Origin: Candidatus Rokuibacteriota bacterium
Lineage (GTDB): Bacteria; Methylomirabilota; Methylomirabilia; Rokubacteriales; CSP1-6
Reading direction: 5' to 3'
NCBI GenBank assembly: GCA_003220495.1
Contig: QHSP01000041.1
Span: 6,925 to 70,924 of the forward strand
Length of the DNA: 64,000 bases
Below are positions 2,751 through 44,497 of this stretch, piece by piece. The translations under genes were made by a program, and so were the position numbers. The number at the start of each line of letters is the position of its first letter. The stretch's first letter is position 1. The notes beneath the pieces are model-generated. The model saw nothing but the letters and a program-made list of their open reading frames with translations, was not told the origin of the DNA and searched no databases.

Positions 2751-3596
2751 ATGCGTGGATGCCCACTGACGATTTCGAGCGTATTCATCGCAATCTTGTT
2801 GACGGCTCCCGCCGCGGTGCTCGCGCATCCCCATGGGGCCGAGCCGATCATCATCGGTATCGCGCCGCAGCAAGAGCCGGAGAAGGTGCGCGCGATGTGG
2901 CAGCCCTTCCTCCGCTATCTCGAGAAGGAAGTCGGCCACGCGTTCGCGTTCGAGACCGCGTCGTCGATCGAAGAGTTTCAGCAGCGCGTCCTCGAAGGAC
3001 GATACGACATCTGGTGGGGCAACCCGCTGACGTATATCCAGGCGAGCAAGCGGCTCGGCTACATGGCGATCGCGCGGGATACCACGCGGATCGCCGGGCT
3101 GCTCGTCACGCTCAAGGATGGCGAGGTGAAGTCGCCCAAGGAGCTGACGGGCAAGAAGATCGCCTACTCGGCCCCCGACGCGATCGGCGGAACCTTGCTC
3201 GTGCAGAGCTACCTGGCCCGTGTCGGCGTCGCGCCCGATCAAGTCGAGACCATGTACACCGGCTCCCACGACGCGGCCTATCGCGCGGTCCTGGACGGCA
3301 AGGCGGCGGCGGCCGGCGGCGTCCCCCGGAGCTTCAACGCGCTCGATCCGGCGCAGCGCGAGAAGCTGGTCGTTCTCACGCGAACCGAGGAAGTCGCGCC
3401 TCAGCCCTTCGCCGTCCATCCGCGCGTCTACCGGAGCGTCGTCACCAAGATCCAGCGGGCGCTGCTCAAGCTCAACTGGGCTCCCGAGGGAAAGGACATT
3501 CTCGCGTCGATTCAGTACAAGGAGATCGTCGTCTCGAACGACTTCGACTACGACATCCACCGCGACGTGGCGCAGCGCCTGAAGATTCCCTATTGA
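2751..3596 (+). CDS. PhnD/SsuA-type periplasmic substrate-binding protein (phosphonate-ABC-like)
   Basis: Start chosen at ATG 2751 (GGAGGA 6 nt upstream): MRGCPLTISSVFIAILLTAPAAVLA signal, then IIIGIAPQQEPEKVRAMWQPFLRYLEKEVG...RYDIWWGNPLTY, resembling PhnD-like binding proteins. The track ORF from 2595 is an out-of-context N-extension overlapping the previous gene. Confidence 0.75.
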   Translation: MRGCPLTISSVFIAILLTAPAAVLAHPHGAEPIIIGIAPQQEPEKVRAMWQPFLRYLEKEVGHAFAFETASSIEEFQQRVLEGRYDIWWGNPLTYIQASKRLGYMAIARDTTRIAGLLVTLKDGEVKSPKELTGKKIAYSAPDAIGGTLLVQSYLARVGVAPDQVETMYTGSHDAAYRAVLDGKAAAAGGVPRSFNALDPAQREKLVVLTRTEEVAPQPFAVHPRVYRSVVTKIQRALLKLNWAPEGKDILASIQYKEIVVSNDFDYDIHRDVAQRLKIPY

Positions 3597-3639
3597 GTCA
3601 TCGCACGGAAGCGGGCACGAGCTCCGCCGAGGCACCGGC

Positions 3640-5859: not shown

Positions 5860-6552
5860 CTATTCCGCAGCCAGCCGATAGCCGACACCGGACTCCGTGA
5901 GCAGATAGCGCGGTCGGGCCGGCTCCGCCTCGAGCTTGTGCCGCAGGTGCGCCATGTAGACCCGCGCGTAGTGGGCCTGCTCGGTGTGCGCCGGCCCCCA
6001 CACCTCGCGAAGCAGCTGCTGGTGCGTGACGACCTTACCCGCGTGACGCACCAGGGTCGTCAGAAGCTTGTACTCGATCGGCGTCAGATGCATTTCTTTG
6101 TCGCCGACGAACACCTGGCGGCGCACGAGATGGACGCGTAGCTCGCCCACCCTGAAGACGGCGTCGTCACCCTCATGCGACGCGCCGGCGGTGTGGCGGA
6201 GCGCCACGCGGATTCGCGCGAGCAGCTCGCCGGCGCCGAACGGTTTGCTCATGTAGTCGTCGGCGCCCGCGTCGAGCGCCGTGACCTTGTCGCGCTCCTG
6301 ACCGCGCGCCGACAGCACGATCACGGGCACGGCGGTCCATTCGCGTACGCGACGGATCACGTCCAGGCCATCCATGTCGGGCAGGCCGAGGTCGATGATG
6401 ACGACGTCCGGCTGACGGGAGCTGACCTCGACCACGCCATCGGCTCCGGTCGTCGCCTCGAAGAGCCGATAGCCCTGCCCCTCGAGCGTGGCCCGGAGGA
6501 ATTTGCGGATCTGGGGCTCGTCCTCGATGACGACGACGACAGGGTCAGGCAT
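5860..6552 (-). CDS. kdpE: OmpR-family response regulator KdpE
   Basis: MPDPVVVVIEDEPQIRKFL...IIDLGLPDMDG...SARGQERDKV..DAGADDYMSKPF, plus a winged-helix C-terminus (LTPIEYKLL...GVGYRL). Start taken at ATG 6552, 8-nt overlap with the kdpD stop. The track N-extension to 6750 overlaps kdpD. Confidence 0.9.
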   Translation of the reverse strand: MPDPVVVVIEDEPQIRKFLRATLEGQGYRLFEATTGADGVVEVSSRQPDVVIIDLGLPDMDGLDVIRRVREWTAVPVIVLSARGQERDKVTALDAGADDYMSKPFGAGELLARIRVALRHTAGASHEGDDAVFRVGELRVHLVRRQVFVGDKEMHLTPIEYKLLTTLVRHAGKVVTHQQLLREVWGPAHTEQAHYARVYMAHLRHKLEAEPARPRYLLTESGVGYRLAAE

Positions 6553-9265: not shown

Positions 9266-9380
9266 TCTAAACGCTGTGGACGTTTTGAACCTGGAGCCGG
9301 TGTCTCGTTGCGCGGCGTCGAGCGCAGCGCTCCCTGACTCGGCGGACGTCTTGACGGGTCCTTAACGTCCCGGCGCGGGA

Positions 9381-9399
9381 TCTTGACGGTTTCTTGAGA
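9381..9399 (+). promoter_or_regulatory. Direct repeats TCTTGAcggtt-TCTTGAgat (11-bp phasing), candidate KdpE box
   Basis: Two TCTTGA hexamers one helical turn apart, upstream of the kdpF-like/kdpF genes in the kdpD-kdpF divergent region. A third copy, TCTTGACGG, lies at 9349-9357. OmpR-family regulators bind such tandem repeats. No clean -35/-10 could be placed. Confidence 0.3.
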
Positions 9400-9434
9400 T
9401 GGCTGGGCGCTATCGTTCTCAGTGGAGGTTCAGC

Positions 9435-9524
9435 ATGGACTGGGCTGATTTTCTCTATGTCGGACTGAGCGTGCTCTTCTTCGGCCTCACCTGGGCGTTC
9501 GTCAGGCTCTGCGAGCGCGTGTAG
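9435..9524 (+). CDS. 29-aa hydrophobic peptide, divergent KdpF-like paralog
   Basis: Found by own reading (too short for the track): GGAGG-N6-[32 protein letters not shown]. One TM helix, and the tail FVRLCERV echoes the KdpF ALLxPExF tail. Confidence 0.35.
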
Positions 9525-9533
9525 GAGGTCGCC

Positions 9534-9626
9534 GTGCCACTGCTCTACATCGTCGGCGGTCTCGTCTCACTGGGCCTGTTGATCTACCTCGTGCTGGCGC
9601 TGCTCAAGCCGGAGCTCTTTGCATGA
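9534..9626 (+). CDS. kdpF: K+-transporting ATPase subunit F
   Basis: Own reading: AGGAGG-N5-[33 protein letters not shown], which matches the KdpF signature (..YLxxALLxPExF). Its TGA overlaps the kdpA ATG (ATGA). Confidence 0.7.
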
Positions 9627-11416
9627 CAGCCAACGGCGTTCTTCAGCTCGTTTTCTATATGGTGGTTCTGCTGGTGCTAGCCAAGCCGCTCGGCGCGTAC
9701 ATGGCTCGCGTCTACGAGGGCCGGCCGATCGTGCTCGACCGGGTGCTCGGCTGGCTCGAGCGTCTGGTCTACAGGGCATCGGGCGTCACACCGGAGCTCG
9801 AGATGGGCTGGAAGACCTACGCCTTGACGATGCTCCTCTTCAATCTCGCCGGGGTCCTGGCGGCATACGCGCTCCAGCGTCTCCAGGGCGTGTTGCCGCT
9901 CAATCCGGCCGCGCTCGGCGCGGTCTCGCCCGACTCCTCGTTCAACACCGCCGTGAGCTTCGCGACGAACACGAACTGGCAGGGCTACGGCGGCGAGACG
10001 ACCATGAGCTATCTCACGCAGATGCTCGCCCTGACCGTGCAGAACTTCGTGTCGGCGGCGACGGGCATGGCGGTCGCGGTCGCGTTGATCCGAGGTTTCG
10101 CGCGCCGCTCCGCCGAGACGATCGGCAACTTCTGGGTCGATCTCACGCGAACCACGCTCTACATCCTGCTGCCGCTGTCGTTCGTCTTCGCGCTCGTGCT
10201 CGTCTCTCAGGGCGTCGTGCAGACGTTCAGTCCGTACGCGAAGGTCGCGGTGGTGCAGCCGACCGAGTACGACGAGCCGGTGACCGACAAGGACGCCAAG
10301 CCGGTCCTCGACGAGAAAGGCCAGCCGAAGACGAAGAAATCCACCCTGACCGAGCAGGTCATCGCGGTGGGGCCGGCGGCCTCGCAGATCGCGATCAAGC
10401 AGCTCGGTACGAACGGCGGCGGCTTCTTCAACGTGAACTCGGCCCACCCGTTCGAGAACCCGACGCCGCTCTCGAACTTTCTCGAGCTGCTGGCGATTTT
10501 GCAGATCTCGGCCGCGCTCTGCTACACGTTCGGCGTCATGGTCGGCGACACCCGCCAGGGATGGGCGGTGCTCGCCGCCATGACCGTCATCTTCGTGGCG
10601 CTTCTCGTCGTGTGCGTGGTCGCCGAGCAGAACGGCAGCGTCTTCGTGAAGCAGGGGGTCGACCACACCGCGAGCGCCCTGCAGTCCGGCGGGAACATGG
10701 AGGGCAAGGAAGTCCGGTTCGGCATCGCGAACTCAGCCTTGTGGGCCACCGCGACAACCTCGGCGTCGAATGGGTCGGTGAACTCGATGCACGACTCGTT
10801 CACTCCCATCGGTGGCCTCGTACCCATGTGGCTGATCCAGCTCGGTGAGGTCATCTACGGCGGTGTCGGCTCCGGCCTCTACGGAATGCTCATGTTCGCG
10901 ATCATCGCGGTCTTCGTGGCCGGGCTGATGGTCGGTCGCACGCCGGAGTATCTCGGGAAGAAGATCGAATCCTACGAGATGAAGATGTCCTCGCTGGTCA
11001 TCTTGATCACCCCCGCGCTCGTGCTTATCGGGACGTCGATCGGCGTGGTCACCGCGGCCGGAAAGGCCGGCATCGCGAACCCGGGCATCCACGGATTCAG
11101 TGAGATCCTGTACGCCTTCTCGTCAGCGTCCAACAACAACGGAAGCGCCTTCGCCGGCCTCTCGGCGAACACGCCCTTCTACAACACGGCGCTTGGCCTC
11201 TGCATGCTCTTCGGCCGCTACTGGCTGGCCGTGCCGGTGCTGGCGATCGCCGGTGCCCTGGCGCGCAAGAAGATCGTGCCGGTCGGCGCCGGCACCTTGC
11301 CGACGCACACGCCGCTCTTCGTAGGGCTGCTGGTCGGCGTCGTGCTCCTCGTCGGCGCGCTGACGTTCGTTCCAGCGCTGGCGCTCGGGCCGATCGTCGA
11401 GCATCTCACATGGTAG
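9623..11416 (+). CDS. kdpA: K+-transporting ATPase subunit A
   Basis: 597 aa: [33 protein letters not shown]...[10 protein letters not shown]...[14 protein letters not shown]; the selectivity-filter-like motifs of KdpA. Confidence 0.95.
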
Positions 11417-11578
11417 TGCGAGCCGCAGGCCGTCGCGGGGCTGGGGACCCGCCGGCCGAGGCGAGCTTATTAGAAGGAGTGCGAGCCGCAGGCCGTCGCG
11501 GGGCTGGGGACCCGCCGGCCGAGGCGAGCTCGAGCCGCAGGCCGTCGCGGGGCTGGGGACCCGCCGGCCGAGGCGAGC
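11415..11578 (+). repeat. Three tandem copies of an approximately 50-nt GC-rich REP-like hairpin element
   Basis: AGTGCGAGCCGCAGGCCGTCGCGGGGCTGGGGACCCGCCGGCCGAGGCGAGC occurs at 11415-11466, 11478-11529 and (lacking the first nt) 11531-11578. It fills the kdpA-kdpB gap, and the unit is an imperfect palindrome. Confidence 0.85.
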
Positions 11579-11616
11579 GATGAAGAATGATCGCCGGGAA
11601 ATGAGGTGATAGAGCC

Positions 11617-13689
11617 ATGGCTGGCACGGTAAAGGCGCGCTCATTGTTCGATGCGACGATCGTGCGGCAAGCGATCGTCGACTCCTTCCGCAAGCTGACG
11701 CCTCGCCGCCAGGTTCGGAACCCTGTCATGTTCGTCGTCTACGTGGGCTCGATCCTGACCACGCTCCTGTGGGCGCAAGCGGTCGTCGGCGACGGCGAGG
11801 CGCCCGGCTGGTTCATCTTGTGGGTGTCCGTATGGCTCTGGTTCACGGTGCTGTTCGCGAACTTCGCCGAGGCGATGGCCGAGGGGCGCGGCAAGGCGCA
11901 GGCGGCGTCGCTCCGCAAGGCGCGGCGCGATCTCCAGGCCAAGCGGCTGTCGCGGCCCGAGCGCGCCGCTCGATTCGAGCTCGTCCCGGCTTCGAGCCTC
12001 CGAAAAGGACAGCACGTGCTCGTCGAGGCCGGGGATTTCGTCCCGGCCGACGGGACGGTCGTGGAAGGCGTCGCGTCGGTGAACGAGTCGGCGATCACCG
12101 GCGAGAGCGCGCCGGTCATCCGCGAGAGTGGCGGCGACCGCAGCTCGGTCACCGGGGGTACGCAGGTGCTGTCGGACTGGCTTATCGTCGAGGTCACCGC
12201 GGATCCGGGCGAAGCGTTCCTCGACCGCATGATCTCGCTGGTCGAGGGCGCCAAGCGGCAGAAGACGCCGAACGAGATCGCCCTCGACATCCTGCTGGCG
12301 GCGATGACCATCATCTTTCTCCTGGCGACCGCCACCTTGCTGCCGTTCTCGCTCTACAGCGTGGGCTCCGCCGGTCAGGGGACGCCGGTGACCGTGACGG
12401 TCCTGGTGGCCTTACTCGTGTGCCTGATCCCGACGACGATCGGGGCGCTCCTCTCGGCGATCGGCATCGCCGGCATGGACCGAATGATCCAGAAGAACGT
12501 CATCGCCATGTCCGGTCGAGCCGTCGAGGCGGCGGGAGACGTGGACGTGCTGCTGCTCGACAAGACCGGCACGATCACGCTCGGCAACCGTCAGGCGACC
12601 GCCTTCTACCCTGCCGATGGCGTGACCGAGGCCACGTTGGCCGACGCAGCTCAGCTCGCATCACTGGCCGATGAGACGCCCGAGGGGCGCAGCATCGTCG
12701 TGCTGGCCAAGGAGAAGTACCGCATCCGCGAGCGCGAGGTTGAAAAGATGGGCGCGACGTTCGTCGCGTTCACGGCGCAAACGCGGATGAGCGGCGTCAA
12801 CCTGAACGGCCGCCAGATCCGGAAGGGCGCCGCCGACGCGATCGAGGCCCACGTGAGGCGGCTCGGCGGCACCGTGCCGGCCGGCGTCCGCGGCACGGTC
12901 GACCGGATCGCGAAGGAGGGCGCGACGCCGCTCGTGGTCGCCGATGGCGCCAACGTTGTCGGCGTCATCCAGCTCAAGGACATCGTGAAGGGCGGCATCC
13001 ACGAGCGGTTCACCGAGCTCCGCCGCATGGGCATCAAGACGGTCATGATCACCGGCGACAACCCGCTCACCGCGGCGGCGATCGCGGCGGAGGCCGGCGT
13101 CGACGAGTTCCTGGCCGAGGCGACGCCCGAGGCCAAGCTGAAGCTCATCCGGGAGACGCAAGCCCAGGGACGGCTGGTGGCGATGACCGGCGACGGCACC
13201 AACGACGCCCCAGCGCTCGCTCAGGCCGACGTGGCCGTCGCCATGAACACGGGGACGCAGGCGGCCAAGGAAGCCGGCAACATGATCGACCTCGACTCGA
13301 ATCCGACGAAGCTCCTCGAGGTCGTCGAGACCGGCAAGCAGATGCTGATGACGCGCGGCGCGCTGACGACCTTCAGCATCGCCAATGACGTCGCCAAGTA
13401 CTTCGCGATCATCCCGGCGGCGTTCGCCACGACGTATCCGGTGCTCGAGACGCTCAACATCATGCACCTGGCGACGCCCCAGAGCGCGATCCTGTCCGCC
13501 GTCATCTTCAACGCGCTCATCATCATCGCCCTGATCCCGCTGGCGCTGAAGGGCGTCCGCTACCGTGCGATCGGCGCCGCGGCCGTGCTGCGCCGTCACG
13601 TCTGGATCTACGGCGTCGGCGGCATCATCATCCCGTTCCCAGGCATCAAGCTGGTCGACATGATTCTGGTGGCCCTTCACCTTGTGTAG
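11617..13689 (+). CDS. kdpB: K+-transporting P-type ATPase subunit B
   Basis: 690 aa with DKTGTIT phosphorylation motif, TGDN and [13 protein letters not shown] motifs. Confidence 0.95.
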
Positions 13690-13719
13690 GGCCGCGGCTA
13701 TGAAGAGGGAGCTGACACC

Positions 13720-14289
13720 ATGCTGACTCATGTGCGCGCCGCGATCGCCTCGCTCGTCGTCTTCACGGTGGTCACCGGCGTCGCCTACCCGGTGCTCGTG
13801 ACGCTGATCGCCCAGCTCGTCTTTCCGCACCAGGCGAACGGCAGCCTGATCGTCAAGGGCGGCAAGACCGTCGGCTCGACGCTCATCGGGCAGCCCTTCG
13901 ATGCCCCGACATATTTCTGGGGTCGTCCGTCGGCAACCAGCCCGTTCGGCTACAACGCGGGCTCCTCGGGCGCGTCGAATCTCAGCCCGACGAACGCCGA
14001 TCTGGTCAAGTCGGTGCAAGGGCGCGTCGATGCCCTCCGGGCCGCCGATCCCGGCAATACGGCGCCGGTGCCGGTGGACCTCGTAACCGCCTCGGGCAGC
14101 GGCCTCGATCCGCACATCAGTCCGGCGGCTGCCCTCTATCAGGTGGGCCGCGTGGCCAAGACGCGCAAGCTCGATGAGAGCATCGTGCATGGCCTGGTCG
14201 CGCAGCACACCGAGGGCCGGCTGTTCGGCGCGCTCGGCGAGCCTCGGGTGAACGTGCTCGAGCTCAATCTCGCGCTCGATTCGCGGTAG
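13720..14289 (+). CDS. kdpC: K+-transporting ATPase subunit C
   Basis: 189 aa with an N-terminal TM, then [10 protein letters not shown]...GRPSA...[10 protein letters not shown]...[13 protein letters not shown], typical of KdpC. Confidence 0.9.
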
Positions 14290-35410: not shown

Positions 35411-35998
35411 GTGCGCGGCCTCGAGCAGATCCCGTGGCTCTACGACGGGCTCTGCGCGGTGCTGGAGCGCACGGGTCTGGGCCCGTGGCGTCGGTGGCTG
35501 GCGGGCGGCGCGCGCGGGCGAACGCTCGACGTCGGGTGTGGAACCGGTCGCGGGCTGCCGCTCTACGGCCCGGACGTGCGGGCGATCGGCCTCGATCCGG
35601 GGTGGGATTCGCTCGGTCGCGCGCGCCGTCGAGCGCCCGGTGTGCCGCTGGTGCAGGGGCGCGCCGAGGCCTTACCGTTTCGGGGCGGGACGTTCGACAC
35701 GGTCGTCGCGAGCCTGGTCTTCTGCAGCGTGGCCGAGCCCGCGCGCGGGCTTGCCGAGGTCAAGCGCGTGCTGCGGCCCGATGGCCGGTTGCGAATGCTC
35801 GAGCACGTTCGCTCGCGCCGGGCGTGGAAGGCGGCGCTCCAGGACCGCGTGCAGCCGATCTGGACGTGGGCCAGCGGCGGCTGCCACCCCAATCGCGACA
35901 CCGAGCGAGCGGTGGAGGCCGCCGGCTTCGTGATCGACGCCGAAGATCGAGCCGAGCTGGCCGACCTGCGGCGGTTCTCGGCGCACGCGTTCGACTAG
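35411..35998 (+). CDS. Class I SAM-dependent methyltransferase
   Basis: GTG start immediately after the FIST stop. LDVGCGTGRGL (motif I)...FDTVVASLVFCSV...VLRPDGRLRMLEH. Confidence 0.8.
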   Translation: MRGLEQIPWLYDGLCAVLERTGLGPWRRWLAGGARGRTLDVGCGTGRGLPLYGPDVRAIGLDPGWDSLGRARRRAPGVPLVQGRAEALPFRGGTFDTVVASLVFCSVAEPARGLAEVKRVLRPDGRLRMLEHVRSRRAWKAALQDRVQPIWTWASGGCHPNRDTERAVEAAGFVIDAEDRAELADLRRFSAHAFD

Positions 35999-36015
35999 AG
36001 CCGCGCCGGGCTCTT

Positions 36016-37602
36016 CTAGAGATCGTTCCCGGAGTAGGAGAGGTTGAAGGACTTGTTACAGAGGGGAAAGTCCGGGACGATGTTCTTCAGCACGGCGTAC
36101 TCGAGCGCGGGCCAGTTTCGGAAGGACGGATCGACGACCTTCACGCGGCCGAGGGTCGAGGGTCCGCCGGCTACGACCCAGTGCCACACCGGTCCGCGCC
36201 ACGCTTCGACGAGACCGAGCGCGTGGGCGCCCGGGGTGAGCGGTGGTATCTGGGCGCGCGCCGCCCCCGGGGCATCGAGACGCGCCGCCTCGCGAACCAG
36301 GCGCGCGGCCTCGCGCGCCTCGTCGAGGCGCACCATCGTGCGGGCCCAGACGTCGCCCGTCCCGTAGACCGACACGTTCACGCCCGTCTCGGCGTACGCC
36401 GCGAAGGGCGCATCGCGCCGCAGGTCGGCGTCGATCCCGCTCGCCCGCCCCACGAGCCCGACGACCTGCATCTCCGTCGCCGTCTGCTCGGTCAGCCGCC
36501 CCGTGCCCTGGAGGCGTTCGAGCACCGTCGTGTTGTCGAGGCAGAGTCGCGCGATCCCGGCGAACTCGGCGACGAGGGTCTCCGCCCTCGTGGCGGCCTC
36601 GGCCAACCGCGCCGTCGTGATCGGCCCGGTCACGCCGCCCGGCACCACCGCGCCGCGGAGCAGCCGATGCCCGGTGAGACGCTCGTTGAGTCGAAGGAGC
36701 TCCTCGCGGATCCGGAAGCAGTGCGCGTGCCCGAAGGCGAAGCCGGTGTCGTTGACGATCATGCCCACGTCACCGACGTGGTTGTAGATCCGCTCGAGCT
36801 CGAGCAGGACGACTCGCAGCCGCGCGGCCCGCGCCGGCACCGTGCAGCCCGCGAGCGTCTCGAGCGCCTGGCAGTACGCGAGGACGTGGCCGACGCTCGT
36901 GTCGCCCGAGATGCGCTCGGCGAGCGCGGGCGCCCGGTCGAAGGCCAGGCCCTCGAAGAGCTTCTCCGTGCCCTTGTGCACGAAGCCGAGACGCGTCTCG
37001 AGGTTCACGATCGTCTCGCCCTCGACGCTGAAGCGGAAGTGCCCGGGCTCGATGATTCCGGCGTGGACGGGCCCCACGGTGATCTCGAAGATGCCCTCGC
37101 CCTCCACGCGCCGGAACGGGAACGGCTCACCCGTGTCGACGAAGTCCGTGCGTGGCACGGCGTCGCGGCGCAGCGGGTGATAGCCCTCCGGCCAGTACTG
37201 ATGGAGCGCGAGCCGTCGTCGATCCGGATGCCCCTGGGGGACCAGGCCGAACAGGTCGTGGATCTCGCGCTCGAAACGGCTGGCCGCGAACGAGCGCGTC
37301 GCGAGCGAGGCGAAGCGGGCCGTCCCGGCCGGGACGGCGACGAGCACGGTCACCGACGGCGCGAGCTGCGGCGGCGCGAAGACGTAGGCCAGCGTGAAGT
37401 CGCCGCCGGTGGCGCGCGTGTCGGCGGCGGCGAGGAATTGGCAGCGCGCGCCGAGCGGCGCCAGACGATCCGCGAGCGTGGGAATCTCCCAGGCGGGCAA
37501 CCGGCAGCGGATGCCGCTCGGGGACGACGAGGCGACGTCCGCGGCGCCGGCCCGTGTGGCGGCGTGGCGCAGCGAGTCGAGCGTGAGGGTCGCCGGCTGC
37601 AT
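36016..37602 (-). CDS. NuoC-NuoD/HycE-like fused large subunit lacking NiFe cysteines (EhrL-like)
   Basis: Start ATG 37602, 1 nt after the preceding stop. N-terminal 30-kDa/NuoC-like domain (FEREIHDLFG), then the HycE/NuoD fold (GPVHAGIIEPGHFRF). The L1 motif reads ERISGDTSVGH, not RxCGxCxxxH. The C-terminus reads CNKSFNLSYSGNDL, not DPCxxCxxR. Confidence 0.85.
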   Translation of the reverse strand: MQPATLTLDSLRHAATRAGAADVASSSPSGIRCRLPAWEIPTLADRLAPLGARCQFLAAADTRATGGDFTLAYVFAPPQLAPSVTVLVAVPAGTARFASLATRSFAASRFEREIHDLFGLVPQGHPDRRRLALHQYWPEGYHPLRRDAVPRTDFVDTGEPFPFRRVEGEGIFEITVGPVHAGIIEPGHFRFSVEGETIVNLETRLGFVHKGTEKLFEGLAFDRAPALAERISGDTSVGHVLAYCQALETLAGCTVPARAARLRVVLLELERIYNHVGDVGMIVNDTGFAFGHAHCFRIREELLRLNERLTGHRLLRGAVVPGGVTGPITTARLAEAATRAETLVAEFAGIARLCLDNTTVLERLQGTGRLTEQTATEMQVVGLVGRASGIDADLRRDAPFAAYAETGVNVSVYGTGDVWARTMVRLDEAREAARLVREAARLDAPGAARAQIPPLTPGAHALGLVEAWRGPVWHWVVAGGPSTLGRVKVVDPSFRNWPALEYAVLKNIVPDFPLCNKSFNLSYSGNDL

Positions 37603-37603
37603 C

Positions 37604-39037
37604 TCAGGGGACCACGATCGCGACGATGCGGGCGAGGACGTCGGCGAGGCCCGGCGGCCACGCGAGCCCGGTGAGCACGAGCAGCGCGAGCGGGGCGGCG
37701 ACCGGCAAGGCCGAGCGCCACCCGAAAGCCTCCTCGGCCGGCTCGCGCACGGGCGGTCCATACAAGATCGCGTGGACGCCCCGGAGGAGGCCCGCGAAGG
37801 CGATCACGAGCAGAAACAACGCGACCCCCGCGACGGCCGCAAACCCCTGCGCGAAGCCGGCGCCGAAGATCATCACCTCGCTGACGAACAGTCCGAACGG
37901 CGGCAACCCGACGAGGGCCAGCATCGCCGCCAGGAACGCCGCGCCGGTCCGCGGCATGCTGCGCATCAGCCCGCCGACGGCCGCGATCTCGGCCGACCCG
38001 TACGCGGCGCGGATGCGGCCCGAGATCAGAAAGCCAGTCGACTTGGCCAGGGCATGGTTGGCGACGTGCAGGAGCGCACCGGAGGTGCCCAGGGTTCCGC
38101 CGAAGCCGAGCCCGAGGCAGACGAGACCGATGTGCTCGACACTCGAGTACGCGAGCATGCGCTTGTAGTTGGGCGAGGTCCACAGGAATGCCGCGGCCAC
38201 GGCGACGGACAGCACGCCGAGCGAAAGCAAGATGCCGCGCGCGAAGCCGGGCCCGGCCGCCGCGTCCACGGCGGGCTTGAATCTCAGGACCGCGTAAACG
38301 CCGACGCTCAGCAGCACGCCCGACATGAGGGCGCTCACCGGCGCCGGCGCCTCGCTGTGGGCGTCGGGCAGCCACGTGTGCATCGGCGCCAGCCCGGCCT
38401 TCGTGCCATAGCCGACCACGAGGAACACGAACGCGAGCTCGATGACTCGCGGCGCCAGCCCGGGCGCCAGCCGCAGGAGCGTCGTCCACCGAAGGGCGTG
38501 GACCTCGTCGCCGAACTGCTGGATGCCGGCGAAATACACCAGGACAGTCCCGAGGAACGCGATGGCGATGCCCACCGAGCAGATCAGCAGATACTTGTAG
38601 GACGCCTCGAGCGAGGCGCGCGTGCGCTCGAAGTTGACGAGGAAGACCGACGCGAGCGTGGTGCCCTCGACCGCGACCCACATGAGCCCGACGTCGTCGG
38701 TCGAGACGGCGAGCAGCATCGTGAACACGAACAGGTGGAAGAGCGGATAGAAGCGGCCCGGCGTCGCGTGCGCGACGTAACGGGGCGCTTCCGACGCGGC
38801 CAGCGCGCCGACGATGCCGATGAGGGCGATCATCCACGCCGACAGGGCGTCGGCGCGAAGCAACCCGTCGAACGCCGCCAGCGGCTCGCCGCGGTTCACC
38901 GTCACGGCCACGGCGAGGGCGCCCACCAGGGTCAGCGCCGCCGTCACGGCGTGGAGCGTCGCCGCGAGCCGGCCGACCGCGCGCCACGAGAGCGCGGCCC
39001 CGACGAGCGGGACCGCCAGGACGAACACCAGCATCAT
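37604..39037 (-). CDS. NuoM/N / HyfF-like antiporter-type membrane subunit (EhrD-like)
   Basis: 477 aa: ..VAVEGTTLASVFLV..., GTKAGLAPMHTWLPDAHSEAPAPVSALMSG (Proton_antipo_M signature). ATGA overlap with the upstream gene. Confidence 0.85.
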   Translation of the reverse strand: MMLVFVLAVPLVGAALSWRAVGRLAATLHAVTAALTLVGALAVAVTVNRGEPLAAFDGLLRADALSAWMIALIGIVGALAASEAPRYVAHATPGRFYPLFHLFVFTMLLAVSTDDVGLMWVAVEGTTLASVFLVNFERTRASLEASYKYLLICSVGIAIAFLGTVLVYFAGIQQFGDEVHALRWTTLLRLAPGLAPRVIELAFVFLVVGYGTKAGLAPMHTWLPDAHSEAPAPVSALMSGVLLSVGVYAVLRFKPAVDAAAGPGFARGILLSLGVLSVAVAAAFLWTSPNYKRMLAYSSVEHIGLVCLGLGFGGTLGTSGALLHVANHALAKSTGFLISGRIRAAYGSAEIAAVGGLMRSMPRTGAAFLAAMLALVGLPPFGLFVSEVMIFGAGFAQGFAAVAGVALFLLVIAFAGLLRGVHAILYGPPVREPAEEAFGWRSALPVAAPLALLVLTGLAWPPGLADVLARIVAIVVP

Positions 39038-39675
39038 CCTCGAAGCTCCCGCAGACGGTCGACGTCGATCGAGTCGTGCTCGCGGCGGACCTGGACGACC
39101 ACGGCTTCCATGATGAGGACGATCACCAGCACATCGAGAAAGACCCCCGCCTCCACGATGCCGGGCAGGCCGTAGGTCGCCAGGATCGCCAGGCCGAAGA
39201 TCCCGTTCTCGAAGACGAGGAAGCCGAGGATGTGGCCCAGCGCATCGCGGCCGGTGACGCAGAGCGCGAGCCCGATCAGCGCCATCGCGAACGCCAGGGG
39301 GATCGCGCCCTCGGTCGGCAGCTCCACCGACGAGGTGACCGGCAGCATGATCACGTAGGCCGCGACGACGAGCCCGCCCGCCACCAGGAGCGTGATTCCC
39401 GAAGAGCGGCCGGGCGCGATGGGTCGCACGGGAGCCCCCGATCCGATCCGGGCGAGCACGCGCGGGATCACCAACCCCTTGACCACGATGACGACGGCGG
39501 CCACCAGCACAAGGCCGCGGCGCTGCGCCAGCACACCGACGGTGCTCGCCAGGGCCGCGAGCAGGAGCGATTGCGCCGCGAAGAGCCGTAACCGCGCCGG
39601 CCAGCTCTGTCGCCAGACGATCAGCAGGGTGACCACCAGCCCCAGAAACGCCAGGAGGTTCGACGCGGTCGTCAT
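39034..39675 (-). CDS. HyfE-like small membrane subunit (EhrC-like)
   Basis: Start ATG 39675 (ATGA overlap). 213 aa, about 6 TM, ending ...LGFLVFENGIFGLAI...VLVIVLIMEAVV as in HyfE/NuoK-related subunits. Confidence 0.75.
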   Translation of the reverse strand: MTTASNLLAFLGLVVTLLIVWRQSWPARLRLFAAQSLLLAALASTVGVLAQRRGLVLVAAVVIVVKGLVIPRVLARIGSGAPVRPIAPGRSSGITLLVAGGLVVAAYVIMLPVTSSVELPTEGAIPLAFAMALIGLALCVTGRDALGHILGFLVFENGIFGLAILATYGLPGIVEAGVFLDVLVIVLIMEAVVVQVRREHDSIDVDRLRELRG

Positions 39676-40616
39676 CGAACGAGGAAGACCGCCATGAGCG
39701 AGAGGAAGGCGAGCGCGAACGATCCGGCGAGCAGCTCGGGAACGCGGAACAATCTCAGCTTCGCCACCGCGGTCTCGAGCACCGCGACGGCTATGGTGAG
39801 AAGGGCGAGCTTGCCGGTCAGCGCCAGGAGGCCCCGGAGCACGGCAACGGGTCCGCTGGGCTCCGTCAGGCCCCACGGCACGAAGAGGTTCGCTAGCAAG
39901 GTCATGAACAGAAACAGCTTCATCGCCGACGCCCACTCGACGAGCGCGAGATGTCGGCCCGAGTACTCGAGCACCATCGCCTCGTGGATCATGGTCAGCT
40001 CGAGGTGGGTCGCCGGGTTGTCGACCGGAAGCCGCCCGGTCTCAGCCAGCATGACGATGAAGAACGCCGCGAACGCGAGGAGGTGCGCCGGGTTGGCCGC
40101 CAGCCACGGCTCGCCGCCGAAACGCTCGACGATGCGCCCGAGGTCGATCGTATCGGCGCGCAGCGCGAGCGCGAACACCGCGACGATGACCGTCGGCTCG
40201 GCGAGCGCGGCGACGGCTACCTCCCGACTGGAGCCCATGCCACCGAACGCGCTGCCCGCGTCCAATCCCGCCAGCGCGAGGAAGAACGTGCCGAGCATGA
40301 AGAGGTACACGAGCAGGATGATGTTGCCCGCGAACGTCAGCGGCGGCCGCACCGTCACCACCGGCACCACGAGCGCGGTGACCAGCAGGGTCGCCACGAG
40401 GATGTACGGCGTGGCGCGGAACACCCAGGAGGTCGTCGTCGACACGACCGCCTCTTTCGCGAGCAGCTTGCGGAAATCGGCATAGGGCTGCCACGGGCTC
40501 GGCCCGCGGCGTCCCACGAGGCGCGCCTTGAGCGTCCGGAGCGCGCCGACCAGGAGGGGCGCTCCGGCTCCGACGATCACGACCTGCACGATCGCCAGGG
40601 CGATGCCGGCGATCAC
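39672..40616 (-). CDS. NuoH/HycD-like membrane subunit (EhrB-like)
   Basis: GTG start 40616 (GTGA overlap). LKARLVGRRGPSPWQPYADFRKLLAKE...AETGRLPVDNPATHLELTMIHEAMVLEYSG, the diagnostic NuoH/HycD loop motifs. Confidence 0.85.
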   Translation of the reverse strand: MIAGIALAIVQVVIVGAGAPLLVGALRTLKARLVGRRGPSPWQPYADFRKLLAKEAVVSTTTSWVFRATPYILVATLLVTALVVPVVTVRPPLTFAGNIILLVYLFMLGTFFLALAGLDAGSAFGGMGSSREVAVAALAEPTVIVAVFALALRADTIDLGRIVERFGGEPWLAANPAHLLAFAAFFIVMLAETGRLPVDNPATHLELTMIHEAMVLEYSGRHLALVEWASAMKLFLFMTLLANLFVPWGLTEPSGPVAVLRGLLALTGKLALLTIAVAVLETAVAKLRLFRVPELLAGSFALAFLSLMAVFLVR

Positions 40617-42520
40617 GCGAGCACCAGCATCAGCAGGAGGGCGACCAGGATGTAGGCCAGATATTGGTTCGCGCTGCCCGACTGCAGCGCTCCGACGGCG
40701 CGCGCCCCGGCGTGGAGGAGGTCGAGCGCGGGCCGGTAGAGCCAGTCGTCGAAGATCGAGCGCGTCGGGTTCTCGTATTCGATCCGTTCGACGAAGAAGC
40801 GCGACTCCGGGTGGAACTCGATGTCGAGGCGCTTCGTGGGCCGATAGAAGAAGTCGAAGACGCGCTTGAACGGGTTGGCGAACGCGGTCGCCGTGTACTC
40901 CATCCGCGCGGTCTGCACGATACGGCCGCAGCCCCACGTCTCGTAACCGCGTGTCCGGCGCGACGCGCCCACGAGCCGGAGGGCCGCGAGGGGGACGAGG
41001 AACGACGCGGCAAGGACGACGGCGATCGCCGCCGTGGAGAGGCTCGCAAACTCGCCCGACACGCGGAGCGTCAGCCAGTCCCCTCCGGTCGCCTGCGGCG
41101 CCGTGCGCAAGACAGCGGCGGCGACGGCCCCGAACACCGGAACGACGAGCGTCGGTCCCAGCCCGAGCGCGACGCACGCGGCCGCCAGCGCGAGCATGGC
41201 CAGACGCATCGGCGGGCTCGCCTCGTGGGCGCCGGCCGCGGCGTCGCTCCGAGGCAGGGCCAGGAACGTGATGCCGAACGCCTTGACGAAGCACGCCATC
41301 GCCAGACCGCCGGTCAGCGCGAGACTCGCGATGCCGAGGGTGAAGACCAGATTCTGTCCGACCGACTCGAGACGCATGTTTTGGAACAGCGCCAGAAACG
41401 TGAGCCATTCGCTCACGAACCCGTTGAGCGGCGGCAGCGCGGCGATCGCGGCCGAGCCGATCAGGAAGCAGGCGGCGGTCCACGGCATCCGCTTGATGAG
41501 CCCGCCCATCGCCTCCATGTTCCTGGTGCCCGTCGCGTGGACGACGGCGCCGGCGCCCAGAAAGAGCAGCGCCTTGAACGCCGCGTGATTGACGGTGTGA
41601 TAGAGCGCCGCGATCAATCCGAGCAACGCGAGCGCGTCGAGGCCGGCGACCCGGTAGAGCGCCGCGCTCCCGATGCCCAGGAGAATGATGCCGATGTTCT
41701 CGATGCTGTGGAACGCCAGAAGCCGCTTGAGATCGTGCTCGACGAGCGCGTAGAGCACTCCGATCACCGACGAGGCGGCGCCCGCGATCAGCAGCGCGGC
41801 GCCCCACCAGGGCGGACCGACCCCGAGCCAGTCGAGGCTCACGCGCAGAAGCCCGTAGATGCCGAGCTTGATCATGACCCCCGACATGAGCGCCGACACG
41901 TGGCTCGGCGCGGCCGGGTGGGCGAGCGGCAGCCAGACGTGCAGCGGAATCACGCCGGCCTTGCCCGCGAAGCCGAGCGCCAGCAGGACGAAGGCCGCGT
42001 CGCGCGTCGTGGGCGCGAGCGCCGACGCCGCCGCGCGCCAGTCCGCGAACCGCGGGCTCCCGACATCGGCGCCGAGCAGGAGCATGCCCGCGAGCAAGCA
42101 GGCGAGGCCGGCATGGGTCATGACGGCGTAGACCCAGGCGGCGCGGATCGACTCCCTGGACTCCCGGTCGCGCAGAACCAGAAAGTAGGACGCCAGCGAC
42201 ATCAGCTCCCACGCGATCAGGAAGGTCATCGTGTTCGCGGCGAGCGGCACGACGCACATCGACGCGACGAAGACGAAGTACGCGAATCGCCCAGTGTCGC
42301 CGTCGGGATAGCCCAGGGCGTAGACCGACGCCGGCACTACGGCGAGGCCGATCAGTGCGAGGAAGAGCCCGCCGAGCGGATCGAGCGTCAGCTCGATCCC
42401 GCCCAGAGGCACCAGCCACGTCAGCCGTAGCGTGCCGGCGCCGCCCGCGACGCCGTAGCCGCCGAGGCCGGCGGCGGCAATGCCGATGAGGATGACCGAT
42501 CCGTACGCGAGCCGGGTCAT
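40613..42520 (-). CDS. NuoL/HyfB/HycC-like antiporter-type membrane subunit (EhrA-like)
   Basis: Start ATG 42520 (ATGA overlap). 635 aa: IAWELMSLASYFLV...GKAGVIPLHVWLPLAHPAAPSHVSALMSGVMIK..., plus a C-terminal extension. Confidence 0.85.
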   Translation of the reverse strand: MTRLAYGSVILIGIAAAGLGGYGVAGGAGTLRLTWLVPLGGIELTLDPLGGLFLALIGLAVVPASVYALGYPDGDTGRFAYFVFVASMCVVPLAANTMTFLIAWELMSLASYFLVLRDRESRESIRAAWVYAVMTHAGLACLLAGMLLLGADVGSPRFADWRAAASALAPTTRDAAFVLLALGFAGKAGVIPLHVWLPLAHPAAPSHVSALMSGVMIKLGIYGLLRVSLDWLGVGPPWWGAALLIAGAASSVIGVLYALVEHDLKRLLAFHSIENIGIILLGIGSAALYRVAGLDALALLGLIAALYHTVNHAAFKALLFLGAGAVVHATGTRNMEAMGGLIKRMPWTAACFLIGSAAIAALPPLNGFVSEWLTFLALFQNMRLESVGQNLVFTLGIASLALTGGLAMACFVKAFGITFLALPRSDAAAGAHEASPPMRLAMLALAAACVALGLGPTLVVPVFGAVAAAVLRTAPQATGGDWLTLRVSGEFASLSTAAIAVVLAASFLVPLAALRLVGASRRTRGYETWGCGRIVQTARMEYTATAFANPFKRVFDFFYRPTKRLDIEFHPESRFFVERIEYENPTRSIFDDWLYRPALDLLHAGARAVGALQSGSANQYLAYILVALLLMLVLA

Positions 42521-43029
42521 CGCGCCAGCCGGCCGATCGCCTCGAGCAGGCCGGCGAGCAGCGCCGCCGGCGAGGGGGGACACCCGGGGATGACCGCGTC
42601 GACCGGCACCACGTCGGCCACACCGCCCACGATCGCGTAGGATCCGCGGAAGACACCGCCGTCCCGTCCGCAGTCGCCCACGGCCACGACGAACTTCGGA
42701 TCCGGCGTCGCGTGCCACGTGCGCCGCAGCGCTTCGGCCATGTTGCGGGTCACCGGGCCGGTCACCAGCAGGCAATCGGCGTGGCGCGGCGAGGCGACGA
42801 AATGCACCCCGAACCGCTCGAGATCGTAGTGCGGTCCGGTGAGGCCGGTGATCTCGAGCTCGCAGCCGTTGCAGGAGCCGGCGTCGACCTGCCGGATCGC
42901 GAGCGAGCGGCCGAAGTGCCGCGCGACCTCCGAGGCCAGGCGCTCGCCGATCCGCTCGAGCTCGCCGGCGGGGACGACCGGCTCGGTGACGATTCCCGTG
43001 CGGAGCGCGGTCCGAAGCTGGCGAAACAC
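42517..43029 (-). CDS. NuoB/HycG-like small subunit with one 4Fe-4S site (EhrS-like)
   Basis: GTG start 43029, 1 nt after the arsR stop. VDAGSCNGCELE...SPRHADCLLVTGPVT...AVGDCGRDGG...IPGCPPSP. The four cluster cysteines are retained. The track ORF to 43386 reads through arsR in another frame. Confidence 0.85.
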   Translation of the reverse strand: MFRQLRTALRTGIVTEPVVPAGELERIGERLASEVARHFGRSLAIRQVDAGSCNGCELEITGLTGPHYDLERFGVHFVASPRHADCLLVTGPVTRNMAEALRRTWHATPDPKFVVAVGDCGRDGGVFRGSYAIVGGVADVVPVDAVIPGCPPSPAALLAGLLEAIGRLAR

Positions 43030-43030
43030 G

Positions 43031-43390
43031 TCAGCGCCGCGCCGGCCGGCGCGTTTCCTGACGGAGCTCGCGCAACATGGTCTGGGTGCCAGCCAGCTGG
43101 TTGTTGAAGATCCGCCGCGCCACGTCGAGGAGGTCGCCGACGAGCGGATCGCGGATCTCGTAGCGCACCGTCGTGCCCTCCTTGCGCGCGGCCACGATGT
43201 TCTTGGCGCGCAAGACGGCGAGCTGCTGCGACACGGTGGACTGGTCGAGGTCGAGGCGGGTCTGGAGCTCCTGGACGCTCCGCTCGCCGGCGCGCAGAAT
43301 TTCGAGGATCCTGATGCGGATCGGGTGGGCCAGCGCCTTGAAGAACTCGGCCTTGAACGACTGGAGGTGGGGCGAGGGCGCTGCACTCAC
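43031..43390 (-). CDS. ArsR/SmtB-family transcriptional regulator
   Basis: 119 aa, GTG start: FFKALAHPIRIRILEILRAGERSVQELQTRLDLDQSTVSQQLAVLRAKNIV (wHTH). Confidence 0.85.
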   Translation of the reverse strand: MSAAPSPHLQSFKAEFFKALAHPIRIRILEILRAGERSVQELQTRLDLDQSTVSQQLAVLRAKNIVAARKEGTTVRYEIRDPLVGDLLDVARRIFNNQLAGTQTMLRELRQETRRPARR

Positions 43391-43397
43391 GACGATC

Positions 43398-43425
43398 AGA
43401 ATATCAAAATATCTCTATATTCCAA
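43398..43425 (-). promoter_or_regulatory. Candidate promoter (TTGGAA-N16-TATTCT) with embedded inverted repeat GAATAT-N12-ATATTC; would give a near-leaderless arsR mRNA
   Basis: An AT-rich 30-nt patch in an otherwise GC-rich context. The -10 ends 7 nt before the GTG at 43390, and there is no Shine-Dalgarno. The inverted repeat 43399-43422 overlaps the spacer, like ArsR/SmtB operators. Confidence 0.4.
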
Positions 43426-44497
43426 GAAGACCGCGGTACACCGCGGTCGTGCGGGTCATCGTCGCGTCGATCGTGTAGCGCTCCCGCACCATCGCCTGGC
43501 CGGCCCGGGCCATCGCCCGCGCGCGCTCGGGCTCGCGGAGCAGCGCCAGGATCGCGTCGGCCAGGGCGCGGGCGTCGCCCGGGGGCACGAGGCGGCCATT
43601 CTCCCCGTCGCGGATCAGCTCGGGACTGCCGCCGACGGTCGAGGCCACGACCGGTGTGCCGACGGCCAGCGCCTGGGGGATCACCTGCGGGATCGCTTCG
43701 GACCTGATCGACGGCAGCACCAGCACGTCGAGGGCCGCCATCACCTCGGGAATGTCCCGGCGAAATCCGGTGAGGCGCACGCTCGTGTCGAGGCTCATCT
43801 CGCGAACTCGTCGCGACACCTCGTCGAAGCCGACCCCGTCGCCGACGATCAAGAAACGCGCGTCGGGCTTGCTCACGAGCACCGCGCGCGCCGCCTCGAG
43901 GAAGACGTTGTGGCCCTTCGAGCCGCGCACGTTGGCGACGAGCCCAACGACCGGCGCCTCGTCCAGGCCCAGCTCGGCGCGAACCGGCCTGCCGGATACC
44001 CCCGCGTGAAACTGGTCGCCATCGACCCCCGCGGAGATCGCCACGACCCGCTCGGGCGCGATGCCCGCCGCGATGACGATCGATCGGACCCCTTCGCCGC
44101 TGGTGATGACGCGATCGGCGAGCCGGTAGACGAGGGCGCGGCGCCGGCGGATCGGGATCGAGACGTGCCGGCTGCGCACGACGGGGCGCCCGAGCGATTT
44201 CGCCGCGACGCCGGCGAGCCAGCTGTCGATAGAGCTATGGGTGTGGACGAGGCTGACGTCGCGGTCCCGGATGAGCCGGCGCAGACGGAGGATCCCGCCG
44301 ACGTCGGTCGCGCTTCGCATTCGCAGGGGCTCGACCGGGATCGCCGATGCCCTCGCCTCGGCGAAGAGGGGGCTATCGGGTTGACAGGCGATCAGCGCTC
44401 CCCAGCCGTGGCCGAGGAGCCAGCGCACCTCGGCGAGCGTACGGATCTCCTGACCGCCGTGGCCGCCGGACGACTCGGTGTGCAGGACGGTCGGCAT
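43415..44497 (-). CDS. GT4-family (GT-B) glycosyltransferase
   Basis: 360 aa: GGHGGQE...VHTHSS...; C-terminal LPSIRSEAIPQVIPQALAVGTPVVAS..GG.PE.I.DG.NG (E-x7-E region). Confidence 0.85.
   Translation of the reverse strand: MPTVLHTESSGGHGGQEIRTLAEVRWLLGHGWGALIACQPDSPLFAEARASAIPVEPLRMRSATDVGGILRLRRLIRDRDVSLVHTHSSIDSWLAGVAAKSLGRPVVRSRHVSIPIRRRRALVYRLADRVITSGEGVRSIVIAAGIAPERVVAISAGVDGDQFHAGVSGRPVRAELGLDEAPVVGLVANVRGSKGHNVFLEAARAVLVSKPDARFLIVGDGVGFDEVSRRVREMSLDTSVRLTGFRRDIPEVMAALDVLVLPSIRSEAIPQVIPQALAVGTPVVASTVGGSPELIRDGENGRLVPPGDARALADAILALLREPERARAMARAGQAMVRERYTIDATMTRTTAVYRGLLGI

Follow-up and report, generated by a model that had tools for sequence, protein, structure and literature searches.

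A seven-gene operon of Ehr type, headed by an ArsR regulator, in a Rokubacteria genome

We have analysed a 64-kb stretch of DNA (hereafter the window; contig QHSP01000041.1, positions 6,925 to 70,924) from a Candidatus Rokuibacteriota bacterium, in which seven contiguous minus-strand genes at 36016–43390 (coordinates are those of the window) almost certainly form an operon of the Ehr ("energy-converting hydrogenase related") type, small-subunit-first and ArsR-headed, in Rokubacteria/Methylomirabilota. Alignments show the operon as the descendant of a group-4 [NiFe]-hydrogenase resembling formate hydrogenlyase (FHL) or Hyf. Its NiFe site and its HycF/NuoI ferredoxin subunit are gone, and the proximal [4Fe-4S] cluster and the whole membrane coupling apparatus are kept. 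Our main reading, to which we give a probability of roughly 0.55–0.6, is that Ehr would be a functional redox-coupled ion translocator. An operon of this kind is already known; the Rokubacteria copy is a new member, and comparison across phyla brings out a shared residue signature. The genes, in operon order, are the following.

43031–43390, minus strand: arsR, GTG start, 119 amino acids (aa), ArsR/SmtB regulator of the Rv0081 type
42517–43029, minus strand: ehrS, GTG start, 170 aa, NuoB/HycG-like small subunit
40613–42520, minus strand: ehrA, 635 aa, HyfB/HycC/NuoL-like antiporter-type subunit
39672–40616, minus strand: ehrB, 314 aa, HycD/NuoH-like subunit
39034–39675, minus strand: ehrC, 213 aa, HyfE-like small membrane subunit
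37604–39037, minus strand: ehrD, 477 aa, HyfF/NuoM-like antiporter-type subunit
36016–37602, minus strand: ehrL, 528 aa, NuoC-NuoD/HycE-like fusion without the NiFe cysteines

These genes are translationally coupled, with all reading frames intact. The junctions, read from the sequence in operon order, are TGA-C-GTG (1-nt gap), ATGA, GTGA, ATGA, ATGA and TGA-G-ATG (1-nt gap). An earlier annotation made from the letters alone (the sequence-only reading) had described seven minus-strand genes joined by ATGA/GTGA overlaps or 1-nt gaps, and both the coordinates and the junction sequences bear this out. Pfam and NCBIfam back the family assignment of all seven genes, and EhrL is encoded contiguously with NuoB-like, NuoH-like and antiporter-like subunits, as expected of an Ehr locus.

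The large subunit, EhrL, matches PF00346 and PF00329 in Pfam and aligns with Escherichia coli HycE (7z0s_E) at E = 1.2e-67 (HMMER alignment). RVCGICGFAH of HycE faces RISGDTSVGH in EhrL (residues 230–239), with the cysteines replaced by S and T, and DPCYSCTD faces NLSYSGND (residues 520–527), with replacements by S and G. The four NiFe-ligand positions are S232, T235, S522 and G525, so both CxxC pairs (L1 and L2) are gone, and this alignment upholds the earlier claim that all four NiFe cysteines are lost. Residues 516–528 read NKSFNLSYSGNDL, the C-terminus being GNDL, while the hydrogenase-type loop VGPVHAGIIEPGHFRF is unchanged. Because all four NiFe cysteines are replaced, we do not read EhrL as a hydrogenase.

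What has taken the place of the NiFe site is strongly conserved. We counted the pocket residues of EhrL across 77 cysteine-less large subunits from many phyla, bacterial and archaeal. S232, which replaces the first cysteine, is found in 73 of the 77, G233 in every one and D234, which is A or V in true hydrogenases, in 76; position 235 is T, S, E or N. At the other end of the pocket, S522 and G525 (in place of the third and fourth cysteines) are invariant (77/77 each), followed by N526 (69/77), D527 (75/77) and the terminal L528 (69/77). Two further acidic residues are specific to the clade, D285 in 75 of 77 (G in hydrogenases) and D491 in 69 of 77 (S in hydrogenases). In a pairwise alignment of EhrL with Thermus thermophilus Nqo4, the quinone-site residue Asp139 faces D285, and Tyr87 faces the invariant G233. 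An AlphaFold2 model of EhrL, built from a shallow 21-sequence alignment, is of moderate quality (mean predicted local distance difference test, pLDDT, 65.8), and a fold search with it returned HycE (7z0s_E) as the best match, then NuoCD. One possible interpretation, which we put forward tentatively and regard as considerably less probable than redox-coupled translocation itself, is that a new conserved site (S232, D234, T/S235, D285, D491, S522, N526, D527 and the C-terminal carboxylate) has been built out of the old NiFe pocket and would take a hard metal ion, a polar acceptor or a cofactor of another kind. Hydrogenases and complex I might then be joined by Ehr as a third functional class, that of an ion pump run by a single FeS (iron-sulfur) cluster and some other redox couple.

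The small subunit retains its electron-transfer equipment. EhrS has four [4Fe-4S] ligands, C53 and C56 (in GSCNGCE), C120 (GDCGRDGG) and C150 (GCPP), which align with the cluster ligands of HycG (7z0s_G, E = 7.8e-42) and MbhJ (6cfw_J, E = 4.9e-40), as the sequence-only reading had supposed, and the same positions are kept in 64–69 of 70 relatives from the cysteine-less clade. A small clade (L024, L025, L030, L052 and L053, from Bdellovibrionales, two candidate phyla radiation (CPR) metagenome-assembled genomes (MAGs), Thermoleophilia and an unclassified MAG) has also lost the cysteine motifs of the small subunit, and complexes of its members would be devoid of any FeS cluster.

The charged residues of the membrane subunits are equally well preserved. 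EhrA, which scores 652.6 bits against NF005086 "hydrogenase 4 subunit B" (cut-off 667) and aligns with 7z0s_C at E = 9.7e-68, carries E105, K187, K218, K316 and E371, and E105, K187, K316 and E371 are each present in 63 of 63 relatives. EhrB (E = 5.1e-48 against 7z0s_D) has E192 and E212 in 65 of 65 relatives and D199 and E217 in 64 of 65. In EhrD, E124 is found in 71 of 72 relatives, K213 and K332 in all 72 and E387 in 67. EhrC matches NF008556 HyfE (E = 4.1e-22, below the cut-off) and, weakly, a NuoK-like Pfam family (E = 3.5e-4). The membrane subunits also match subunits of Mrp antiporters (7qru, 6z16). Against three Rokubacteria orthologous loci (L006–L008), the ratio of nonsynonymous to synonymous substitution rates (dN/dS) is 0.12–0.36 for all seven genes, and cluster ligands, coupling residues and the rebuilt acidic pocket are all shown to be under purifying selection. 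Since dN/dS is low and the pocket, FeS ligands and membrane charged residues are near-invariant, the complex is, by every sign of constraint, a working one and not a relic, and the cysteine loss is not decay.

Neither an input module nor a maturation system accompanies these subunits in the window. No CxxCxxCxxxC[P/A] motif occurs in the six reading frames of the 64-kb window, and among about 40 further open reading frames (ORFs) of the window, Pfam scans detected neither hyp nor fdh genes and no nuoEFG or nuoI/hycF, which confirms the earlier statement that NuoI/HycF, NuoEFG, formate dehydrogenase and hyp are all missing from it. The HycF/HyfH 2x[4Fe-4S] subunit and the FdhF/HycB module are likewise not encoded in the window.

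Complexes of this kind are widespread. A scan of one genome per species gave at least 600 matching stretches, of which the best 80 were used for the analysis of loci, and metagenome catalogues hold more than 7,900 related proteins. The closest large subunits, with up to 95% identity, come from soil metagenomes, and the named ones belong to Candidatus Rokubacteria/Methylomirabilota. Two gene orders are seen. The small-subunit-first order, [ArsR]-S-A-B-C-D-L, was seen in Rokubacteria, Actinomycetota, Chloroflexi, Binatia and a few other groups, with arsR directly upstream on the same strand in 27 of 42 loci and nearby in five more. The small-subunit-last order, A-B-C-D-L-(x)-S, was found in 33 fetched loci from Nitrospirota, Bacillota, Acidobacteriota, Thaumarchaeota, Methanomassiliicoccales and others; in these, a gene for a 2x[4Fe-4S] ferredoxin often separates L from S, also in loci with a cysteine-less L. 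Loci in which a cysteine-less large subunit is followed by such a HycF/NuoI-like ferredoxin ORF include L021, L022, L027, L031, L034, L062, L070 and L080. Given that the ferredoxin is kept beside a cysteine-less L, the family lost its NiFe site and its ferredoxin subunit in separate events. Six loci (L029, L039, L046, L058, L072 and L082) keep RICGxC...H and NKSFELCYxCxDR and are true hydrogenases, at 40–46% identity.

In a neighbour-joining tree of 83 sequences, which is coarse, EhrL clusters, beside group 4a/4f hydrogenases, with the other cysteine-less large subunits, 77 of which share the replacement motif, and this single shared motif argues for one event of cysteine loss. The ArsR-headed small-subunit-first loci form one clade with two halves, one of Actinomycetota and the other of Rokubacteria, Chloroflexi and Binatia, where the window sequence sits. 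The same tree, distance-based and midpoint-rooted, puts the six cysteine-retaining hydrogenases inside the cysteine-less diversity, a placement that we do not interpret. The ArsR-headed operon is ancient and common to at least four phyla. Variations on the basic cluster were also noted. Two Nitrospirota loci (L066 and L075) contain two complete Ehr clusters in tandem, a Fibrobacteria locus (L050) has a second, partial cluster, and several loci in the group L066, L075, L050 and L014/L027/L031 have two HyfB-like genes in a row. A Rokubacteria MAG (VGLJ01000027; L026:7225-8517) carries a solitary cysteine-less EhrL-like gene comprising the NuoD part only, with AERISGDTTVGH and NKSFNQSYSGNDL. The 7 kb upstream of it encode no further Ehr subunit, and it adjoins a DUF72 gene and the same glycosyltransferase, VTT, histidine kinase and NtrC neighbours as in the window, but on the opposite strand.

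The closest known counterpart is Rv0081–Rv0087 of Mycobacterium tuberculosis (Rv0081 ArsR, Rv0082, Rv0083, hycD, hycP, hycQ and hycE), which resembles the window operon in its genes, their order, the cysteine-less large subunit, the FeS cysteines of the small subunit, the lack of HycF, a cysteine-free ArsR in first place and an upstream repeat element. With Rv0081 as query we fetched mycobacterial contigs, and the order ArsR-S-A-B-C-D-L on one strand is common to the window operon, an M. tuberculosis complex contig (L003) and M. riyadhense (L001). Identities between the window and mycobacterial proteins are 47–49% for ArsR, 58–61% for S, 41% for A, 50% for B, 38% for C, 44–45% for D and 45% for L, and the M. 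tuberculosis large subunit carries AERISGDTSAAH and NKSFNQSYAGNDL, replacement motifs equal to those of EhrL. The Rv0081–Rv0088 locus has been described as a "predicted formate hydrogenlyase" operon (10.1101/465575, PMC6177252), although its hyc genes have already been called homologues of EHR complexes incapable of being hydrogenases (PMC6728331). Rv0081, whose crystal structure is solved (10.1101/465575; PDB 6jmi), is a hub of the hypoxic response without a metal site or cysteines (10.1101/465575, PMC6177252) and, as these two sources relate at second hand, autorepresses at an inverted repeat upstream of its own locus.

The two loci differ in their phylum (Actinomycetota versus Methylomirabilota/Rokubacteria) and in the upstream motif, which is GAATAT/ATAT-rich in the window and CTGATAAnTTCTTCAA in mycobacteria. 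An Rv0088-like SRPBCC gene lies downstream in M. tuberculosis and none downstream of the window operon, and the flanking genes are unrelated. The M. tuberculosis locus belongs to the hypoxia/DosR response, and control by DosR or MprA cannot be assumed for the window operon. We also considered the methyltransferase gene at 35411–35998 as a counterpart of Rv0089 and rejected it, as tblastn gave no match to the M. tuberculosis locus at 1e-8 and synteny of the flank extends only to close Rokubacteria. In one isolate of the M. tuberculosis complex (contig L004, Logan SRR7851365) the NuoH-like gene (Rv0084 homologue, 9875–10245) stops after 74 residues and is directly followed by an Rv0088-like Polyketide_cyc2 gene, with no homologues of Rv0085–Rv0087; a natural deletion of about 3.8 kb seems to have taken out most of the Ehr operon. 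The sequence-only reading had valued the ArsR link as a rare handle on such a complex. The link is neither rare nor new, because the operon is collinear with Rv0081–Rv0087, whose regulator is a known autorepressor, and arsR stands upstream in 27 of 42 small-subunit-first loci.

The ArsR protein itself matches NF033788 at 91.4 bits (cut-off 55) and has the general fold and helix-turn-helix of its family; its best solved relative is Rv0081 (6jmi, E = 5e-22). Read from the sequence, it is free of cysteine and, like Rv0081, without metal ligands in alpha3 and alpha5, and it keeps the SQQL residues of the recognition helix. We looked in it for the features of an ArsR/SmtB metal sensor (the alpha3N Cys motif and the alpha5 Asp/His/His/Glu set) and found neither; the SmtB positions D104/H106/H117/E120, mapped through the 6jmi alignment and 10.1101/465575, are D81/L83/F94/Q97. 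The operon-linked ArsR proteins form a coherent subfamily sharing KAEFFK.L.HP.RIR and LSQQL.VLR, with 25 of the 28 aligned being cysteine-free. Among the effectors considered in the sequence-only reading, metals and thiol-redox signals are therefore unlikely, as metal or thiol sensing would call for residues that it does not have. The candidate regulatory elements upstream of arsR are as follows.

43399–43422, no strand: candidate operator, inverted repeat GAATAT-N12-ATATTC (6-12-6), inside the A+T-rich island 43391–43425
43420–43425 and 43398–43403, minus strand: candidate promoter-like hexamers TTGGAA and TATTCT with a 16-nt spacer, score 8/12

The operator-like repeat noticed earlier is thus present as a 6-12-6 inverted repeat. 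In the island around it, A+T reaches 71% over 35 nt, and the 64 kb contain only one other 35-nt stretch with at least 70% A+T. The island includes the 24-nt gap between the stop of a glycosyltransferase gene and the arsR GTG. Each hexamer overlaps one arm of the repeat, and autorepression by promoter occlusion would fit this overlap. TATTCT ends 7 nt 5' of the GTG, with no Shine-Dalgarno sequence visible; in the Rokubacteria loci L006–L008 the motif TTGAC-TATATA-N-ATAT-N-GATAT stands at the same place, 7–9 nt from the start codon. The recurrence of the hexamer positions in these loci is the basis of the proposed promoter, and the short spacing, alike in the orthologues, suggests a leaderless or near-leaderless arsR transcript that would begin at GTG.

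Compared with known systems, the window locus shows every testable feature of Ehr and of the Rv0081–Rv0087 type and lacks those that define a [NiFe]-hydrogenase or FHL, complex I and a metal-sensing ArsR. The Ehr class was defined in Geobacter sulfurreducens, as ehrABCDLS (Coppi 2005 and Marreiros et al. 2013, as cited in PMC13194489, PMC6349859 and PMC4758237), and its function is still called unknown (PMC10284858, PMC10432482, PMC13194489). The Geobacter complex shares with ours the six subunit families and a large subunit without NiFe CxxC pairs. The Geobacter-type order, to judge by the gene names in PMC13194489, is A-B-C-D-L-S, small subunit last, whereas in the window the small subunit comes first and arsR precedes it. 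E. coli FHL-1 (group 4a, PDB 7z0s) is the best solved homologue of EhrL, EhrA, EhrB and EhrS, and no solved structure is nearer. It shares with EhrL the NuoC-NuoD fusion and the hydrogenase-type beta1-beta2 loop IIEPGHFRF, but the window complex is without its NiFe cysteines, HycF, HycB/FdhF and C-terminal maturation peptide, and EhrA has a lysine in transmembrane helix (TM) 7 that HycC lacks. Complex I resembles the window complex in module architecture, in D285 as the equivalent of Nqo4 Asp139 and in the Glu/Lys relay of the antiporter-like subunits, and differs from it in Tyr87 (Gly233 in EhrL), in His38, which has no equivalent, and in possessing NuoI, NuoEFG and NuoA/J; EhrL scores E = 1e-37 against complex I versus 1.2e-67 against FHL. 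The earlier verdict, Ehr-like and neither hydrogenase nor complex I, stands on the absent NiFe cysteines, the change of Tyr87 to G233 and a window free of HycF/NuoI, NuoEFG, formate dehydrogenase and hyp. The chemistry of MBS (Mbx) of Pyrococcus furiosus is with polysulfide. This complex (PDB 6u8y) is a precedent for the re-use of a group-4 hydrogenase scaffold for another acceptor with ion pumping, although it is a distant match to EhrL (6u8y_L, E = 1.1e-23) and has a NuoI-like and many Mrp-like subunits.

In the mechanism that we propose, the six Ehr proteins would form an L-shaped membrane complex, in which the single cluster of EhrS would swap electrons with a donor docked on the EhrS/EhrL cap, either a soluble low-potential carrier (a ferredoxin, for example) or a partner dehydrogenase encoded elsewhere. 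The cluster would hand electrons to an acceptor in the remodelled acidic pocket, at the EhrS/EhrL/EhrB interface, lined by S232, D234, T235, D285, D491, S522, D527 and the C-terminal carboxylate. For this acceptor our leading guess would be a molecule of quinone type or some other small one, although any specific pair of donor and acceptor is at best a rather unlikely choice. Changes of charge in the pocket would power the movement of protons or cations through EhrB, EhrA and EhrD, in the manner of FHL, membrane-bound hydrogenase (MBH) and complex I; the reverse direction would be equally possible, the membrane potential pushing electrons uphill. By homology, a metal-independent dimer of the Rv0081-type ArsR would bind the A+T-rich dyad over both hexamers and autorepress the coupled, probably leaderless transcript.

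Several observations weigh against this scheme. Neither the window nor any of the small-subunit-first loci has HycF/NuoI, and an all-against-all clustering of flank ORFs in 43 such loci gave no conserved partner gene but arsR, the other clusters being noise from spurious high-GC ORFs; with no electron-input module encoded, redox turnover is presumptive. The quinone guess is weakened since Tyr87 is replaced by Gly233 and His38 has no equivalent. The single-chain model of EhrL is poor near the pocket (pLDDT <50 at residues 128–212 and 494–528), so that the clustering of the signature residues in three dimensions would follow from homology. The TM8 position of EhrD is Ser244, not Lys (N, S or A family-wide). 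As to regulation, a strict sigma-70 scan of 35800–43700 gave no promoter, the proposed hexamers being below the consensus threshold, the repeat arms are just 6 nt long, and the mycobacterial loci have another upstream motif (CTGATAAnTTCTTCAA). A search of the literature of 2014–2026 found no biochemical or structural work on Ehr or Rv0082–Rv0087.

Two alternatives take the missing input module as their starting point, and we consider both improbable. Ehr could be a redox-independent, Mrp-like cation/proton antiporter driven by the membrane potential alone, with the EhrS/EhrL cap as a structural element or at most a redox gate. The lack of an electron-input subunit or partner in the window, or conserved in the flanks, would agree with this, as would the matches of the membrane subunits to Mrp (7qru, 6z16) and the subclade L024, L025, L030, L052 and L053 with its lost small-subunit cysteines. 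A structural cap, however, makes it hard to explain why the cluster ligands persist in 64–69 of 70 relatives and the polar/acidic pocket in 73–77 of 77, and the 2x[4Fe-4S] ferredoxin subunit retained by many cysteine-less relatives speaks for electron transfer in the family. Ehr could instead be the membrane module of a larger enzyme, onto which a dehydrogenase from elsewhere docks, for instance a formate dehydrogenase (FDH) with NuoE/F-like subunits. Such an FDH-Ehr complex has been proposed for Margulisbacteria and Saganbacteria (PMC6349859), and the window complex has no input module of its own, yet no dehydrogenase gene is found in the 64-kb window or recurs beside small-subunit-first loci, and the missing HycF-like connecting ferredoxin breaks the usual FDH docking chain.

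That the operon is a decaying hydrogenase relic under relaxed selection, a view held for the Geobacter Ehr in PMC13194489, would fit the loss of the NiFe ligands and the fact that no function was ever shown; it is strongly disfavoured, and in our estimate very remote, given the intact frames and tight coupling, the dN/dS of 0.12–0.36 and the near-invariant residues across at least 77 sequences. Automatic names (such as the Joint Genome Institute's "Ni,Fe-hydrogenase III large subunit") and the M. tuberculosis literature would make the complex a true formate hydrogenlyase or Ni,Fe-hydrogenase 3/4 that evolves H2, which is scarcely credible at all. The best sequence and fold matches are indeed E. 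coli FHL subunits, but all four NiFe cysteines are replaced, HycF, FdhF and hyp are missing from the window, and equally distant proteins (L029, L039, L046, L058, L072 and L082) do keep RICGxC...H and CYxCxDR, the pattern of an active member.

On the arsR side the operon is flanked by a GT4 glycosyltransferase gene (43415–44497, minus strand), whose stop codon precedes arsR by 24 nt, and by genes for RRM and VTT/DedA proteins, a histidine kinase and an NtrC-type regulator, and on the ehrL side by a convergent Methyltransf_11 gene (35411–35998), FIST, DUF420 and an Nramp transporter; these flanks are syntenic only within close Rokubacteria (L005–L008). Elsewhere in the window there is a complete kdp system (5860–14289), with the sensor kinase gene kdpD (6545–9361) and the response regulator gene kdpE (5860–6789) on the minus strand, divergent from kdpA, kdpB and kdpC (9449–14289, plus strand), after which comes an MgtE transporter. 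An ORF of about 745 aa at 3583–5820 (plus strand) fuses a Ser/Thr protein kinase to an ABC-transporter substrate-binding domain (PF04392). The segment 24200–31250 has a lower G+C content (0.62–0.67 versus about 0.70 elsewhere) and may be acquired DNA; on its minus strand lie genes for an OprD-like porin, a DyP-like protein and an SBF transporter, together with two ORFs that have no Pfam match. The only other 35-nt stretch with at least 70% A+T, at about 53718, stands at the boundary between two stop-to-stop ORFs, one of an HD-GYP/GAF gene on the minus strand and one of an ATP-dependent DNA ligase gene on the plus strand, and possibly serves both divergent genes as a common promoter region.

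Ehr is very common, occurring in Rokubacteria, in Actinomycetota including the tuberculosis bacillus (where it belongs to the hypoxia response), in Nitrospira and in ammonia-oxidising archaea, and in evolutionary terms it lies on the way between membrane hydrogenases and respiratory complex I. The window locus, from an uncultured host, opens the Ehr question no further than the mycobacterial or Streptomyces copies do. The cross-phylum comparison does sharpen it, by pointing to an ancient ArsR-headed operon with strong constraint on the cluster ligands and coupling residues, and the acidic pocket signature gives concrete residues to mutate. If the pocket has indeed been rebuilt, a third class of such complexes would have a wide distribution that takes in soil bacteria, nitrifiers, ammonia-oxidising archaea and mycobacteria.

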